Positions 27,155-41,264 are shown, numbered from the stretch's first letter. The stretch: 64,000 nucleotides of DNA from an uncultured delta proteobacterium (GCA_963823335.1 CAWGLD010000001.1:1152001-1216000); one strand, 5' to 3'. The notes: generated by a model not told the origin, from the sequence alone. Numbers and translations: made by a program.

Positions 27155-29296
27155 ATGAAAGCGTTTAATTTGAAAGACATCACATCACTGACCTATCAAC
27201 GGCCGGATATCGAAAAGGGCTATGCAAACCAAACTCTTTGTGTGGATATTTCAGATCCTGAAATATCCATTAAACCGGTTTCCGACGAAATGAAACGGAT
27301 TTTTGTCGGTGGCAAAGGTTTTGATTTATGGCTGCTGTGGCATGCTGTAACCGGAACCACCCAATGGACAGATCCGGAGAACACCATCTGTATAGCCTCG
27401 GGTCCCATGGGCGGGACACCGTCCTATCCAGGATCAGGGAAGAGTATTGTGACGTCCTTGTCGCCGCTGACAGGGTCGGTTGTCGATTCCAACGTGGGCG
27501 GGTATTTTGGCCCCTATCTTAAATTTTCAGGATTTGATGCCCTGGAGATACAAGGCCAATCTTCCCGGGAAGTGGTTATATACATTGACGGTATCAGCGA
27601 GACCGTGACCATTTTCGAGGCACAGGGCCTGCCTGAAGATGCCTATGAAACCTCGTCTGTATTGACCCGGCATTTTGGAAATGAAAAACCAAGAGGAATT
27701 TCCGTCGTATCCACAGGACCGGGTGCGAAACATACCTTGATGGGCTGCCTGAACGTCACCTGGTACGACCCGAAACGGAAACGGGCTAGATATAAACAGG
27801 CCGGTCGTGGCGGACTGGGCACGGTGTTTGCCCATAAAGGCGTCAAGGCGGTTGTTGTCCGTTGGGACACCGTTTCCATGGATGCCAACAACCCGGCCGA
27901 TTTGGAAACAATGAAAACTGTTGCCAAAAGCTACTCCAGAGAGATCGTGGAACTGGACCCGAAACAGAATGAGATGGCAAAGATCGGTACGACCCATCTG
28001 GTTCCTATTATGAACGATTTTGATCTGCTGCCGACGCATAATTTTAAATTCGGGCAGCATAAGATGGCCGGATTGATTGGAAAGGAGGTTTATAAAGATC
28101 TCTTTGATCCAGGATTTGACGGATGCTGGATGGGCTGTACCGTGGCATGCTCTCATGGTGTAAAGGATTTTGTGCCGCTGACAGGCCCCTACAAGGGCAG
28201 CAAGGTTTTTGTGGACGGGCCCGAATATGAAACCATTGCCGGGTGCGGGTCCAATCTGGGCATCTTTGATCCCTATACTATTATCGAAATCAATTTTTAC
28301 TGTGATGCCTACGGTCTCGATACCATCTCTGTGGGGACTACCATGGCATTTGCCATGGAATGCTTTGAAATGGGTCTCATCGACAAAAGCCATACAGGCG
28401 GGCTGGATCTTCATTTCGGCAATCGGGATGCAGCCCTGGAACTGGTTCATCAAATGGCCAGAGGAGAGGGGTTTGGAACGGTTCTCGGCCAGGGTGTCCG
28501 GCGGATGAAAAAGCAATTTGCCTCGGAATTTGGTGCGGATGCGCAAACCCTGCAGGATATCGGTATGGAGTCCAAGGGGCTCGAATTTTCTGAGTACATG
28601 ACCAAGGAATCCCTGGCCCAGCAGGGTGGATATGGCATGGCTCTCAAAGGACCGCAGCACGATGAAGCATGGCTGATCTTTCTGGACATGGTGCACAACT
28701 ATATGCCAACATTCGAACAGAAAGCAGAAGCCTTGCACTGGTTCCCCATGTTTCGCACATGGTTCGGGCTCTGTGGTCTGTGCAAGCTTCCCTGGAACGA
28801 TATTGTCCCGGAAGACAACAAGGACACCGAGGAACCCGCCAAGGTGATCAAGCATATGACATGGTACGCCCAATATTTTGGTGCGGTAACAGGACGTAAA
28901 GTCGTTCCGGAGGATCTCATCACCATCAGCGAGGCGGTATACAATTTCCAGCGGATCTTCAACCTGAAAATGGGGTTTGGGACAAGGGCCCAGGACATCC
29001 TGCCCTATCGTGCAGTGGGCCCGGTGACGGAAGAGGAATATGAATCCCGTCAGGAACGCTACGACGGCCAGCTGAAAGAGAGGCATGGCGTCGATATCCA
29101 GGGCAAGTCTACAGCAGAAAAGGTGGCTGTTCTGCGCAAACTGCGGGAAGAGCAATATGAACAATTAAAAGATGCGGTATATGAGAGAAGAGGATGGACC
29201 CAGAACGGCATACCGACGGTAAAAACCGTCAAGCGCCTGGGTATCGATTTCCCCGCTGTGCTGGAGATCCTAGAGAAAAACGGAGTAACCACTTGA
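27155..29296 (+). CDS. aor: Tungsten-dependent aldehyde:ferredoxin oxidoreductase family
   Basis: SPLTG..DSNVGG, AGRGGLG, CWMGCTVAC, GPEYET, GLDTISVG, CGLCKLPW. Confidence 0.9.
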   Translation: MKAFNLKDITSLTYQRPDIEKGYANQTLCVDISDPEISIKPVSDEMKRIFVGGKGFDLWLLWHAVTGTTQWTDPENTICIASGPMGGTPSYPGSGKSIVTSLSPLTGSVVDSNVGGYFGPYLKFSGFDALEIQGQSSREVVIYIDGISETVTIFEAQGLPEDAYETSSVLTRHFGNEKPRGISVVSTGPGAKHTLMGCLNVTWYDPKRKRARYKQAGRGGLGTVFAHKGVKAVVVRWDTVSMDANNPADLETMKTVAKSYSREIVELDPKQNEMAKIGTTHLVPIMNDFDLLPTHNFKFGQHKMAGLIGKEVYKDLFDPGFDGCWMGCTVACSHGVKDFVPLTGPYKGSKVFVDGPEYETIAGCGSNLGIFDPYTIIEINFYCDAYGLDTISVGTTMAFAMECFEMGLIDKSHTGGLDLHFGNRDAALELVHQMARGEGFGTVLGQGVRRMKKQFASEFGADAQTLQDIGMESKGLEFSEYMTKESLAQQGGYGMALKGPQHDEAWLIFLDMVHNYMPTFEQKAEALHWFPMFRTWFGLCGLCKLPWNDIVPEDNKDTEEPAKVIKHMTWYAQYFGAVTGRKVVPEDLITISEAVYNFQRIFNLKMGFGTRAQDILPYRAVGPVTEEEYESRQERYDGQLKERHGVDIQGKSTAEKVAVLRKLREEQYEQLKDAVYERRGWTQNGIPTVKTVKRLGIDFPAVLEILEKNGVTT

Positions 29297-35299: not shown

Positions 35300-35415
35300 T
35301 TCTTTCAAATGTTGAACCGAAAAAGAGAGGCACCCCAGCGACGTGTTGGTACGTGGCGGAATTTCCGGCTTGTCTGGACCGCAGGATTCTTTATTTCCCA
35401 AATAAGGAGAGACAT

Positions 35416-36798
35416 ATGAATAAAATTATATCCCGGATGGGTGATGGTTGGTTGGTGGCGTTCAGTGAGCAGGAATTGAAACGGGAGTTGGAGGAAGGCA
35501 CGCAGGATGCCGCCGCTCAGGGTGATATTGACCCGCTGCTCGAAGATGAATTGGAATATCTCTTTGAAATTTGTCGGTCGGGCAACAAAATGACAGGGGT
35601 TGAAGCCGGCCGAGAGGTTGTCCTCTCCTACGATGGTCCGACGTTTGAAATTAGACGACTGGGGATCCTGGCGAACCGTCAGACGGCATTGCAAATATAT
35701 GAAAGATGTTTTGGTGCCGACACCCTAGAATTTTCCCATATTGATTACAGCTATAAACAGGTGAAACCCATTGTGCATGAGGAGCTGCCCCTCTTTGAAC
35801 AGCTTCAATCCTTGACCGTAGCGCCCATGCTCTATGGCGCCATGCCCAATTTAGGGCTGTACACAAAACCAGACGGCCCGGTTGCCAACCCGAGTGAGTT
35901 GATGCCCCAGGGAAAAATAAAGGATGCCCAGGAGGCTTATGAAGAGGCCGTTGAAATGTCTGTGAACGACATGGTTTTTGTCGCTTCAAAGTTTTATGAG
36001 GCTGGTTGTGACGGTATCAATATCGACACCGTAGGGGCCTCTGGCGACCCTGATTTTAAAGCGGCTCTGTTAGCGACAGAAGCGCTCAGGAATAAATATC
36101 CCGATATCAATATTGAAATTGGAATGGCAGGTGAATTTGTTCTGGGTATGCATGGAGAGATGACACACAACGGGAGACGATTGGCCGGCATGTATCCCCA
36201 TGAACAGGTTAAGCTGGTGGAGGAGGCCGGTGCCCACATATTTGGGGCCGTGGTAAACACACAGACACGCCAGTCCTTTCCCTGGAATCTGGCCAGATCA
36301 GTGACCTTTAGTAAAGCATGCACAGCGGCAGCCAATATCCCAGTACACGGTAATATGGGGATGGGCGTCGGTTCACTGCCCGTTTGCGAGATGCAACCGG
36401 CTGAAACGGTATCCATGGCCTCCAAGGCAATGGTCGAAATTGCCCGTCTTGATGGCTTGTAGGTTGGCACCGGTGATCCTGCCGGTGTGGCCATTACACA
36501 TGCCATGACCTCGGGAATGGGTGGAATACGGACCACAGGAGATCTTGTGGCTCGGATGCAAATTTCGCGGGGCATGAAAATTGGTAAGGCCAAACAATAT
36601 GTAGCAGAAAAATTGGGTGTATCCATCCAGGATATACACGATGCAGTGGCTATGCGAGAGACACGGGAAGACCTCCGTATCGGTGTACTGCAATCGTTGC
36701 CTGGTCACCCAAAAGGCATTGAAGCCAAGTACAATATTGCCAGAGTACTCGGAATTGAATTGAATTCCTTACGTTCTTCAAAAGTCCGTATCGGATGA
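35416..36798 (+). CDS. mtbB: Pyrrolysine-containing dimethylamine:corrinoid methyltransferase (460 aa, TAG at 36460-36462 = codon 349)
   Basis: AAGGAG RBS; SRMGDG, HIDYSYKQVKP, YGAMPNLGLY, WNLARSVTF, GMGVG. Context ..[41 protein letters not shown] continues MtbB homology in the same frame. Confidence 0.93.
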
Positions 36799-36932
36799 GC
36801 CGGCAAAGATCAGTCTGAATCACAACAGAGACTGCACTCCTGTGGCTTGTCGTGTCTGCAAGGCTCTGCTTTGTGCTTTTTGTCAACAGCGGCCCCAAAT
36901 TCTCCAGGCTAAGAATAAACCTTAGGAAAAAA

Positions 36933-36962
36933 TTGACTTCATGGAGAATGAAACGCTATAAT
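36933..36962 (+). promoter_or_regulatory. Candidate sigma70 promoter for mttB
   Basis: TTGACT-N18-TATAAT. Confidence 0.55.
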
Positions 36963-37067
36963 TTCCAGCAACAGGCGAGCGCAACCGGCCAGGGGGATGT
37001 AATAGCGGTTCCCCCTGGTCAAACCCCTGCCCCATAGTATCATTTGTGGTATTGAAAGCCGTTGAGG

Positions 37068-37150
37068 TTGAAGAACCTCGCAGCAGGCTACGAGGAATGT
37101 TCCGCCTTACGGCAGAACCTACGGGGTTAGCGCTCGCTGTTGCGGTTCGG
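37068..37150. repeat. TTGAA...TTCAA repeat, copy 3 (reverse orientation)
   Basis: Reverse complement gaaccgcaacagcgagcgctaaccccgtaggttctgccg... closely matches the 53018 and 5300 copies. Confidence 0.8.
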
Positions 37151-37224
37151 ATTTGGATTCGAGTGTTTCAAGTTTACACTGCTGTAGACAGGATTACTAA
37201 AGATGTCCAAAAAAGGAGAATAAT

Positions 37225-38718
37225 ATGCCAATCGAAACAATAGCCCAGGCAGTAAAAAAATGCGGTGTTGCCATCGAGCCGGCCGTGTCTTTTCGACTGC
37301 AGTGCCTGAGCGATGAGGACTGCCGGAGAATCCATAATGCCACATTGGAAGTCCTGGATCAAACCGGCATTTTTGTTCCCAGCAACAGGGCAACGGAAAT
37401 TTTTGCAGATCATGGCGCCAGGGTGAACAAACACGATCGGCGGGTGTTTTTATCGGCGCACATCGTCGAAAAAGCACTGTCCACCATTCCCGATCAAATT
37501 CGAATCCCCGGACGGGAGCGATCACGGGACTACATCATGGGGGGAGAGTCCCTGGGCTTTATCAATTTCGGGACCACGGTGTTTATAAACGATTTAGCCA
37601 CGGGTGAACGACGTAAATCGACCAAGGAAGATGTGGCCCAGGCGACCCGCGTTTTGGACGCGTTAAACAGCATTGATATATTGATCACCGTATTGAGCTG
37701 TACAGAAAAATCTTCTATGACCGAAACCATGCACGCCACGGCAGCCATGCTCGCAAACACGACCAAACCGGTGGAAGCGGTACCCCCCACGGCCAATTTA
37801 ATTCCCAAAATGGCCCTGATGGGAGAGGCGGCTGTCGGCAGAGATGTCTTTTGCAAAAATCCGTTCTTCTTTACCGGGGTTTGCGTTGTGAGCCCTTTAC
37901 AACTGGTGGACGAGTGCAGTGAAGTGCTGCTGGCATCTGTGGAACATAATTTTGTCACCAGTGTCCTCTCCATGTGCCTGGCCGGAGGGACATCGCCCAT
38001 CCATCTTGCAGGAACAGTGGTCCAGCACAATGCCGAAGTGCTAAGCGGGCTGATTTTGGGACAACTTCTGAAGCCCGGTGCGCCCATGATATACAGCAGC
38101 TCCACCACATCGATGGATATGCTTTTTGGCACCGCTGCCGTCGGGTCCGTGGAAGGCGCTATCCTGAACGCGACCCTGGCCCGCATGGGTCGCTATTACC
38201 ACATACCCGTAAGGGTATCGGGCGGGTAGGTGGACAGTAAACTATGTGACGCCCAAACCGGTTACGAGTCCTTGCTTACAGCGCTTCTTCCCTCATTGGC
38301 AGGTGCCAATCTGGTTTATGGAGCAGGCATGCTGGACAGCGGAATGGTTCTGGATTACGGCAAAATGATTCTTGATGATGAGATCAATCATACTATCAAG
38401 CGCATCGTTAAAGGGGTGCAGGTTACGGAAACATCGCTTTCGGCGGACCTTATCAAGGAGGTAGGGCACACCGGGAATTATTTGACGCATCCGAGCACCT
38501 TGGAGCACTTTTCCGAGTTGGTACAACCCAAACTTATGAACCGGGAAAACTATGAAAACTGGTCGGCCAAAGGTCGAACCGACGTGCACGAAAGGGCATT
38601 GGAAAGAGCCAGGGAACTGGTGGCGAATCATCAGCCTCAGCCTATCAGCGAAAAGGCGCAAAAAGAAATCGATGAAATCATCCGCGAGACTGAAAAAGAA
38701 CTCGATGTGGACAGTTGA
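37225..38718 (+). CDS. mttB: Pyrrolysine-containing trimethylamine:corrinoid methyltransferase (497 aa, TAG at 38227-38229 = codon 335)
   Basis: AAGGAG RBS; IHNATLEVL, VSPLQL, LAGGTSPIHLAGTVVQHNAEVLSG, PGAPMIY. Context VSGG-TAG-VDSKLCDAQTGYE..LAGANLVYGAGML continues in frame. Confidence 0.93.
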
Positions 38719-39591: not shown

Positions 39592-39611
39592 TTAGGGGAC
39601 GTCCTTGACTA
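39592..39611. repeat. Right copy of 20-bp inverted repeat (ttaggggacgtccttgacta)
   Basis: Inverted match to 39013-39032; contains the stop of the upstream CDS and sits at the MATE breakpoint. Confidence 0.6.
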
Positions 39612-41091
39612 TATTGACTAATTTAGAGCGTGTTGTTGCGTGTGTCACTGCATGGCGGATACCCCGCAAGGCCCTTTCTACGTTGGCAAACACCGGAATG
39701 CCGTGGGACTGATATGCCTTGCGCAGGATGCGGGATGTTTTTTCCACATCCACATCCGCAACGGTCACGGCGTGGTTTTCGAAAACAGCAATAATTTCCC
39801 TGCCAGATTTATTTTTCAGCCGTTCGAGCACCGGCAGCATTTCTTCCAGATACGCCCCGGGCGGTCCTGCCGGCACACCAGCCATTTCCATAAAAGAGCG
39901 CACTTCCACCTCAAGGGGTCTTAACAGGAATACCATGATCAGGATATCAATGGGTTCCGAGTCAAGGATAATTTCCAGAGATTTTTCGATAACATCTGCG
40001 GGAACAACAGGTGATCCCGTATCCAGTGGGTTTTGCATGCTGTTGCCGGGTGTGGGATAAAATTGACGAAGCCGCTTTTGTGTTGCAGCACTAAAGTGAT
40101 CCAGGGTCAGGCCTGATCTATGGGACACATCACAGCTGAATACGCCGATGGCACCGCCCCCCCCTACCAGGGCTATTCGAGGTCCCGGTTTTTTGAGGTA
40201 TTTCAGCGCCACGAGGGCATCCATGAGTTCGTCCAGGCCCTGAACAGGGATGGCATGACCCTGTCTGAGAACACCCTTCCATATGTCGGCATCACCTGCC
40301 AGAGAAGCTGTATGACTTTGGGTCGCTCGATTTCCCGGGGGTGTCAGGCCGGCCTTCCAGATCACGACCGGTTTTTGCCGTGTTACCCGGCGGAGTGTTT
40401 CCAAGAATTCTTGCCCATCCCTGACTCCTTCCAGATAGGCGGCTATTACGTCTGTTTCAGAATCGGTAGATAAGTAGTCGAGAATCGCGATGGCGTCCAG
40501 GTCACATCCATTGCCGAATGATACCATTTTGCTGAGATGGATACCTGCCAGACGGGCTTCATACCCGAAATCAGTCGCAACACCGCCACTCTGCGAGAGC
40601 ATGGCAATCGAGCCGGGCTTTTTGGAGAAATCAGCTCCCGGTAACAGAGTGACGCCGCCACGGGGTGAATGAATACCAAAGCAATTGGGACCGACTACCC
40701 GGATTCCCTCACGTGCGATAAGCGCCACTTCTCTCTGCAGGGCGATACTTTCAGCTGAACCGATCTCGGCAAAGCCGGATGAATGAATTTGAGCACCTGT
40801 AACACCATATCGCAGACAGGATCTTAAAATATCGGGTACAAATTTGGCCGGAACCGATATGGACGCCAGATCAACAGGACCTTCCACCTCCTCGATGCAT
40901 TTATAAATTTTGTGCCCGTTCAGTTCTCCGCCCTTGGATGAGATGGGGTATAGCTTTCCCGGATAGCCATATCGGATCAGGCTTAAGGCGATGAGGTTGC
41001 CAAAGGCACCGGGCCTGCTGATTCCGCCAAAAACCGCAATTCCCCTGGGGGCAAAGATTCTGTCCAATGGATTGTTTTTCTTTTTTGTCAT
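39592..41091 (-). CDS. Acyl-CoA synthetase (NDP-forming) alpha-type, CoA-binding protein
   Basis: FAPRGIAVFG, SSGFAE, VVGPNCFG, SQSGG, SFGNGCDL, QSHTASLAG (phospho-His), NPLDT. Confidence 0.88.
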   Translation of the reverse strand: MTKKKNNPLDRIFAPRGIAVFGGISRPGAFGNLIALSLIRYGYPGKLYPISSKGGELNGHKIYKCIEEVEGPVDLASISVPAKFVPDILRSCLRYGVTGAQIHSSGFAEIGSAESIALQREVALIAREGIRVVGPNCFGIHSPRGGVTLLPGADFSKKPGSIAMLSQSGGVATDFGYEARLAGIHLSKMVSFGNGCDLDAIAILDYLSTDSETDVIAAYLEGVRDGQEFLETLRRVTRQKPVVIWKAGLTPPGNRATQSHTASLAGDADIWKGVLRQGHAIPVQGLDELMDALVALKYLKKPGPRIALVGGGGAIGVFSCDVSHRSGLTLDHFSAATQKRLRQFYPTPGNSMQNPLDTGSPVVPADVIEKSLEIILDSEPIDILIMVFLLRPLEVEVRSFMEMAGVPAGPPGAYLEEMLPVLERLKNKSGREIIAVFENHAVTVADVDVEKTSRILRKAYQSHGIPVFANVERALRGIRHAVTHATTRSKLVNIVKDVP

Positions 41092-41264
41092 ATGCCTTAC
41101 ACGGCCTTTTAATGCGTCTGGTATCAAGTGGGCTGCAGCGTCCCATATGTTAAATATAAATCAGTTCTTTCCCTTATCCATTCCATGAGTAAATTGCAAT
41201 TCCTTACTTGAAATGAAGCTATTGAACTACTATGCTGCAATGGTATCTCAAAATGAGAAAAACC

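Follow-up and report, generated by a model that had tools for sequence, protein, structure and literature searches.

Opening Question

Two adjacent open reading frames of an uncultured delta proteobacterium (GCA_963823335.1) are separated by a single in-frame TAG codon. They lie in a stretch of 64,000 nucleotides (CAWGLD010000001.1:1152001-1216000), the whole of which was analyzed and is referred to below as the window. The question raised by this locus is whether the TAG codon terminates a broken or truncated gene, or whether it is read as pyrrolysine (Pyl) in a dimethylamine methyltransferase, MtbB, as had been proposed in a sequence-only reading of the same DNA. Our analysis makes it highly probable that this region encodes a methyltransferase of the MtbB family, in which UAG would be read as pyrrolysine and which would act in dimethylamine demethylation and the downstream route described below.

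Reading Frame and Family Assignment

The two open reading frames, 35353–36462 (369 aa) and 36487–36798 (103 aa), belong to one frame of the plus strand, which agrees with the sequence-only reading and is confirmed by the ORF listing. Between the ATG at 35416 and the TGA at 36796–36798 the sole internal stop is the TAG at 36460–36462 (codon 349). Translation of this interval gave the 460-aa read-through product that had been described before, and the residues around codon 349 read LDGL-O-VGTGDP, where O stands for the TAG. The coordinates of this gene and of the associated features are listed in Table 1.

The TAG is present in the DNA and is not an assembly slip, because contigs assembled from three coded public runs (X2, X3, and X4), belonging to three studies, bridge the site. 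These contigs carry one or two differences from the window, all of them elsewhere; one of the three runs may be the source sample of the window. No variant was found at 36460–36462 among the 40 variant places listed (61 more lie beyond those listed). None of the runs listed for 35416–38718 was an RNA run.

The read-through product matches the family PF09505 (Dimeth_Pyl) over residues 6–453 with 619.8 bits (cut-off 25, E 3.2e-186). The match forms a single HMM stretch on both sides of the TAG, indicating that the two-part ORF is not a product of chance. The product also scores above the cut-off of the NCBIfam equivalog TIGR02368, [dimethylamine--corrinoid protein] Co-methyltransferase (489.6 bits vs 369.1). 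With both models above their cut-offs across the TAG, the gene can be regarded as a full-length mtbB, in line with the earlier proposal. Among 14 control genomes the PF09505 family is represented in Methanosarcina acetivorans only.

Table 1. Features of the mtbB locus (positions counted from the first nucleotide of the window).
Feature	Position	Strand	Details and evidence
Shine-Dalgarno-like AAGGAG	35404–35409	+	6 nt 5' of the ATG at 35416; read directly from the sequence
mtbB CDS	35416–36798	+	460 codons plus TGA, one internal TAG read through; translation, PF09505, TIGR02368
Predicted pyrrolysine codon, in-frame TAG	36460–36462	+	Codon 349; TAG column in paralogs and related loci, RF02509 positions 1–3
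Match to Rfam RF02509 PYLIS_2 (pyrrolysine insertion sequence, mtbB)	36460–36559	+	72.9 bits vs gathering cut-off 36, E 1e-16, model positions 1–100 of 100
Small conserved hairpin	36536–36547	+	4 pairs, loop AGAU, 77–88 nt after the U of UAG; columns 77–80 pair with 85–88 in 86 sequences
Terminator-like stem-loop with T-rich tail	36857–36875	+	3' of the mtbB stop; consensus scan only, number of sites not above shuffles
Dispersed repeat of about 81 bp in the mtbB-mttB spacer	37068–37148	.	No part in gene function; about 75 full or partial copies genome-wide, in both orientations
mttB (trimethylamine methyltransferase)	37225–38718	+	Read-through ORF, in-frame TAG at 38227–38229 (codon 335); equivalog TIGR02369, 553.3 bits vs 525

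Conservation of the In-Frame TAG

The sequence-only reading had placed the TAG at the pyrrolysine site of MtbB, and this placement holds. RF02509 is a curated Rfam model of 100 nt starting with the UAG of mtbB genes, and its positions 1–3 (UAG) fall on 36460–36462; much of the score of this match reflects conservation of the coding sequence. The comparison with Methanosarcina was made through this model and the NCBIfam equivalog. The genome contains five mtbB genes, each with one in-frame TAG at the same alignment column (5/5). The same column holds TAG in 79 of 79 related loci, which come from species-representative genomes in a contig scan that retained bacterial loci only, and in 10 further copies present in their flanks. 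The records concerned belong to Thermodesulfobacteriota, Chloroflexota, Bacillota, and Spirochaetota, under the labels Desulfobacterales, Desulfohalobiaceae, Dehalococcoidia, Clostridia, Spirochaetota, and Olavius-associated Delta 1 proteobacterium. Within the GTDB family of the window the gene occurs in all 15 genomes, with 1–12 matches each, and exactly one TAG is present in 75 of the 76 best rows.

The 111 codons that follow the TAG are under purifying selection and form part of a functional protein. A comparison of codons 350–460 with the closest relative, L016 (83% identity), revealed 13, 6, and 40 differences at codon positions 1, 2, and 3, respectively, comprising 33 synonymous and 18 non-synonymous changes. 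The corresponding numbers for the 348 codons upstream of the TAG are 58, 25, and 186. After residue 349, an alignment of 39 sequences contains 26 invariant columns.

Standard annotation had been expected to split or truncate such a gene. This is indeed the case for 118 of the 120 best database homologues, which end at about 341–375 aa. In the paralog C1:642724 the TAG is codon 356, and its 120 best homologues are 347–361 aa in length. Codon 356 is also the Pyl position in Methanosarcina barkeri MtbB1, and this paralog is consistent with the figure given in the sequence-only reading, a Methanosarcina MtbB of about 467 aa with Pyl at 356. All of the entries found with the same paralog were unnamed or bacterial and ended at the TAG; none was a named archaeal MtbB. 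The fragment downstream of the TAG, searched among longer proteins, gave nothing significant.

Family members with another residue in the Pyl column were also recorded. In L095 (G011:C365:2175–3530), which comes from another genus of the same taxonomic family and matches MtbB over its full length (636 bits), Ser is encoded at the TAG column and the flanks are altered (VGL for DGL and GDL for GDP). This homologue may have lost Pyl while remaining functional, as a Pyl-free derivative, or may be in decay. The unnamed NCBI/Logan protein P0106 (466 aa, about 50% identity to the window protein) is a full-length member of the MtbB family with Leu in this column (IDGL-L-IGTGDP), and could possibly be a natural Pyl-free relative of MtbB.

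Pyrrolysine Machinery and Use of UAG

A search of the genome for pylT, pylSn/pylSc, and pylBCD, which the sequence-only reading had suggested as a check, found all of them, the protein-coding genes above their NCBIfam cut-offs and pylT by ARAGORN. The 46 tRNA genes detected by ARAGORN include one tRNA-Sec and one tRNA-Pyl(CUA), the latter located at C2 (c[80111,80184]) and having a 6-bp anticodon stem, a 3-nt variable loop and a small D arm, as in the tRNA-Pyl class. No tRNA gene was detected by ARAGORN within the 64-kb window. Contig C2 also carries pylSc (TIGR02367, 326.5 bits vs cut-off 178.15), pylSn (TIGR03912, 132.2 vs 51.15), pylC (389.6 vs 248.3), and pylD (251.3 vs 150.05). In the region C2:76649–80184, pylT is followed by contiguous same-strand genes in the order pylSc-pylC-pylD-pylSn, and the neighbors of this cluster are a corrinoid protein gene and another mttB-mtbB pair, each gene of which has a TAG. 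As a caveat, genome completeness is 93.9% and contamination 4.6%, and the window is on C1, a different contig from that of the pyl cluster (C2). The remaining gene, pylB (455 bits vs 348.2), was found at C1:1461420–1462460. It is thus on another contig than the other pyl genes, with a pterin-binding ORF about 3.3 kb upstream and ABC-transporter ATPase genes just downstream.

TAG is at the same time an everyday stop codon in this organism. It terminates 557 of 2594 crude long ORFs (21.5%; a greedy ORF set, not the output of a gene caller) and also three of the five mtbB genes, so that UAG is ambiguous, and reading it as Pyl must compete with termination. Ambiguity of UAG in other users of Pyl is described in a recent paper (PMC13663744). 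The three mtbB genes concerned, at C2:85577, C1:642724, and C7:65480, carry TAG twice, in the Pyl column and as the apparent stop; if the second TAG were read through, the next stop would be reached 3 to 75 codons further on, depending on the copy.

The TAG column and the pyl set support the earlier reading of a Pyl-type mtbB in a UAG-decoding bacterium. Neither of the two observations named there as refuting it, a TAG outside the Pyl column or a genome lacking pylT/pylS, was made. To judge from these sequence data, the internal UAG almost certainly encodes pyrrolysine. The sequences themselves show an MtbB-family gene, where its TAG lies and how widely this codon is kept, purifying selection beyond the TAG and a full pyl set; translation of UAG as Pyl, dimethylamine as the substrate and the downstream route are inferred.

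Alternative Explanations

Were the TAG a true stop, the locus would be a pseudogene or code for a truncated protein of 348 residues, and 36487–36798 would be a remnant. The frequency of TAG among the ends of crude long ORFs and the truncation of nearly all best homologues at this point in public gene calls speak for it, but the TAG column is kept in every related locus and paralog, substitutions dominated by third positions continue for 111 codons past the TAG, the HMM match crosses it unbroken, and the genome holds the full Pyl machinery; we consider a true stop very unlikely. The same low probability is given to the reading of the TAG as a standard amino acid, whether through general amber suppression or through reassignment of the code. 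Database entries with Q (P0092) or L (P0106) in the Pyl column and the Ser codon of the relative G011:C365 would fit such decoding. The only tRNA with a CUA anticodon among the 46 is, however, of the Pyl type and lies beside pylSc, and the code is not reassigned, because TAG ends about one fifth of the long ORFs. As for P0092, 11 of the 15 listed members of its cluster are 352 aa long and end at the TAG, and its Q therefore looks like the result of an alternative code applied by the gene caller. A sequencing or assembly error as the origin of the TAG has hardly any probability left: the assembly consists of multiple contigs with an estimated contamination of 4.6%, but contigs of three runs from three studies span the site with no variant among those listed, and the same codon recurs throughout the homologue sets, both in the related loci (79/79) and in the best family rows with one TAG (75/76).

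A different possibility is that the protein does contain Pyl and belongs to the MtbB family, but that the substrate of its subclade is some methylated amine apart from dimethylamine. In a tree of 39 sequences the window copy belongs to a 13-row clade (support 100/99) composed of Thermodesulfobacteriota records only. Members of this clade have T or D at Pyl+2 and the motif P-A-G-V, whereas the other clades have V and P-x-G-M, and the presence of T or D instead of V at this site means that the substrate may not be exactly dimethylamine. Moreover, the five mtbB paralogs of the genome are anciently diverged, and the retention of five such copies suggests a division of labor; of the two copies scored with TIGR02368, that of the window is the lower (489.6 vs 517.9 bits for the C2 copy). 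On the other hand, the window MtbB still exceeds the equivalog cut-off, the residues flanking Pyl (DGL and G.GDP) are retained, and the neighboring gene is a Pyl-mttB, the reaction of which would yield dimethylamine. Since the sequences in the tree had been selected as the closest hits of the window protein, the taxonomic purity of the clade may be a sampling effect. Another substrate is thus improbable, although less so than the explanations discussed above, and dimethylamine is retained here as the predicted substrate of MtbB.

Predicted Structure of MtbB

The AlphaFold model of MtbB, obtained with an alignment of 39 sequences, is a TIM barrel predicted with confidence (pLDDT 90.8, pTM 0.92). 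Residue 349 is located in a predicted beta-strand of the barrel (347–350). In a comparison independent of Foldseek, the predicted barrel, residues 64–396, came closest to barrels of corrinoid-linked methyltransferases, first of all the homocysteine-binding (Hcy) domain of MetH, the cobalamin-dependent methionine synthase (Z 19.0, rmsd 3.2, 253 residues aligned). The methyltransferase 4ay7 of Methanosarcina mazei gave Z 17.6, and unrelated or generic TIM barrels gave Z of about 13–14. The nearest solved folds are thus the MetH Hcy domain and MT2-type barrels (Z 17.6–19.0). A Foldseek search with the model returned generic TIM barrels only, with TM on query of no more than 0.36, and a sequence search with the read-through product revealed no MtbB structure in the PDB. 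The only PDB match below 0.001 in that search, a designed repeat protein aligned to residues 375–423, was taken as spurious.

Structures of two other corrinoid-dependent methylamine methyltransferases, MtmB and MttB, have been solved, with Pyl inside a TIM barrel, and the same report states that the three methyltransferase families have no mutual sequence similarity (Li et al., 2023; PMC9842639). The window MtbB is predicted to share the TIM barrel with MtmB and MttB, residue 349 lying in a barrel strand of the model.

RNA Structure Downstream of the UAG

The window copy matches the RF02509 PYLIS_2 model over its full length from the UAG. The Rfam structure was evaluated on 86 sequences (85 distinct), in which 77.4% of cells are paired, compared to 36–46% with the partners slid. 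The two helices differ in this respect, with 71.8% paired in helix 1 and 86.2% in helix 2; the first hairpin is poorly kept, unlike in the model, and has five non-standard pairs in the window copy. The second hairpin is preserved, with compensatory substitutions at synonymous positions among the 86 sequences. The covariation score is 0.136 vs 0.110 ± 0.006 in shuffled alignments (0/500 as high), a difference that is confounded by coding constraint and by relatedness, of which the latter inflates such figures, and both sides change in only three of the 18 RF02509 pairs. Folded alone, the segment 36460–36570 is no stabler than its shuffled versions (z -1.06; 32 of 200 shuffles as stable).

The small hairpin listed in Table 1 gives the clearest of these signals and lies within codons for a conserved Gly-Asp-Leu. 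Its pair 78:87 is unbroken in all 86 sequences (CG in 64, UG in 17, UA in 3, and AU in 2), and both partners are synonymous third codon positions. The window copy has the A-U variant of this pair, and the Gly codon inside the hairpin is GGA in 86/86 sequences. Co-variation at positions 78 and 87 extends across four bacterial phyla. The hairpin signal fits an earlier report of conserved structure in mtbB (Theil Have et al., 2013; PMC3639795). It could be proposed that the hairpin is a functional recoding signal, favoring the insertion of Pyl over termination in bacteria that also use UAG as a stop, but we regard this as doubtful. According to a recent paper, Pyl can be inserted in the absence of any such element (PMC13663744), so any function of the PYLIS is putative.

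Genomic Neighborhood

The gene mttB is located 426 bp downstream of mtbB and likewise matches a pyrrolysine insertion model, Rfam RF02510 PYLIS_3 (mttB), at 38227–38326, starting from its TAG (63.4 bits vs 38). Among the loci of the T/D subclade this arrangement, with mttB directly downstream of mtbB, is shared only by L016, the mttB of which is 80% identical and in which the gap is about 15–20 nt and the expanded spacer is missing; the other 12 loci checked have different neighbors or none in reach. Scans for promoters and terminators in the spacer found one promoter-like and one terminator-like site, with site counts not above those of shuffled sequences. The spacer also contains the dispersed repeat (Table 1), the summed contig depth of which is very high in four metagenome runs from sediment. 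This repeat is REP- or MITE-like, and a weak match to a REP-associated tyrosine transposase was noticed at C2:73870–75090 (70.1 bits, below the cut-off of 80).

Upstream of mtbB the window encodes a Cache/HD-domain protein and a divergent class-V aminotransferase, and the genes downstream of mttB are unrelated. The products of 27155–29296 and 39592–41127, an aldehyde:ferredoxin oxidoreductase (AFOR_N/AFOR_C) and an ADP-forming acyl-CoA synthetase-like protein (CoA_binding_2 and Succ_CoA_lig), are unrelated to methylamine use. Neither a corrinoid protein (MtbC) nor an activase is encoded within the 64-kb window. The closest gene for a corrinoid protein, at C1:1091266, lies at a distance of about 96 kb, and the mtbB copy on C2 is 4.7 kb from a corrinoid protein gene. 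Adjacency to mtbC is usual in the MtbB family, although not required.

Comparison with Known Pyrrolysine-Containing Methyltransferases

The window protein resembles MtbB of Methanosarcina in its membership of the same family above the equivalog cut-off and in its similar length, 460 aa vs about 467 aa for archaeal MtbB. The local context is also like that of the Rfam mtbB PYLIS consensus, in which UAG is followed by codons for I-G-V-G-D-P, with a single in-frame UAG. The differences from the Methanosarcina enzyme are the bacterial host, in which tetrahydrofolate would probably accept the methyl group for oxidation, instead of coenzyme M for methane formation, the lack of an adjacent mtbC, and Thr in place of Val at Pyl+2.

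Counterparts are also found among marine bacteria. The delta-1 symbiont of Olavius algarvensis is reported to have six MtbB and two MttB Pyl genes and pyl genes with a split pylS (Zhang and Gladyshev, 2007; PMC1976440). Dimethylamine methyltransferase with in-frame Pyl in marine Deltaproteobacteria is reported in a later study (Kivenson et al., 2021; PMC8318568). The occurrence of Pyl-MtbB in Desulfobacterales-type bacteria is therefore not new, having been in print since 2007 and again in 2021, and the genome lists in the supplement of PMC8318568 may already include this lineage. The type of lineage, multiple UAG-containing mtbB and mttB genes, the split pylSn/pylSc and the presence of both tRNA-Sec and tRNA-Pyl are shared with the Olavius delta-1 symbiont and marine Desulfobacterales. 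One of the related loci, L086, comes from an Olavius Delta 1 record and likewise has its TAG in the Pyl column. The genome of the window differs in its number of genes, five mtbB and six full-length mttB genes with TAG vs eight Pyl genes in delta-1 (PMC1976440), and in having pylB apart from the other pyl genes, unlike the comparison set of the Olavius delta-1 symbiont and marine Desulfobacterales. The window MtbB and the Olavius copy are only about 58% identical.

Since the biology is known for marine Desulfobacterales, the value of this locus is in correct annotation rather than in discovery. Standard gene callers cut Pyl genes at UAG, as seen from the 118 truncated entries among the 120 closest ones in the database.

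Proposed Methylamine Metabolism

In addition to the five mtbB genes, the genome contains six full-length genes of the MttB family with one TAG, and 13 without TAG. Two corrinoid proteins score above the TIGR02370 cut-off and two just below it, and there are four matches to RamA-type activases, three to pterin-binding proteins and one to dsrA (615.8 bits). The presence of corrinoid proteins, activases, pterin-binding proteins and dsrA means that parts for a route from dimethylamine to tetrahydrofolate and to oxidation with sulfate are in place.

The following sequence of events can be proposed. PylB, PylC, and PylD would make pyrrolysine, the split PylSn/PylSc synthetase would load it onto the tRNA-Pyl(CUA) of the organism, and this tRNA would decode the UAG at codon 349 of MtbB. 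If the Methanosarcina enzymes are taken as a guide, the residue would lie inside the TIM barrel and activate dimethylamine, and a corrinoid protein, encoded in another part of the genome, would receive one methyl group on its Co(I). From there the methyl group would probably pass to tetrahydrofolate and be oxidized, with sulfate as the electron acceptor. This uncultured marine-sediment bacterium, a relative of sulfate reducers that carries dsrA, thus has genes to demethylate dimethylamine and trimethylamine by means of the 22nd amino acid, and it would compete with methylotrophic methanogens for methylamines.

The only ORF of the MtmB family in the genome (PF05369, 291.7 bits), located on the minus strand at C7:374563–375909, has no in-frame stop and is a non-pyrrolysine homologue of MtmB; it adjoins a corrinoid protein gene at C7:376242–376826.
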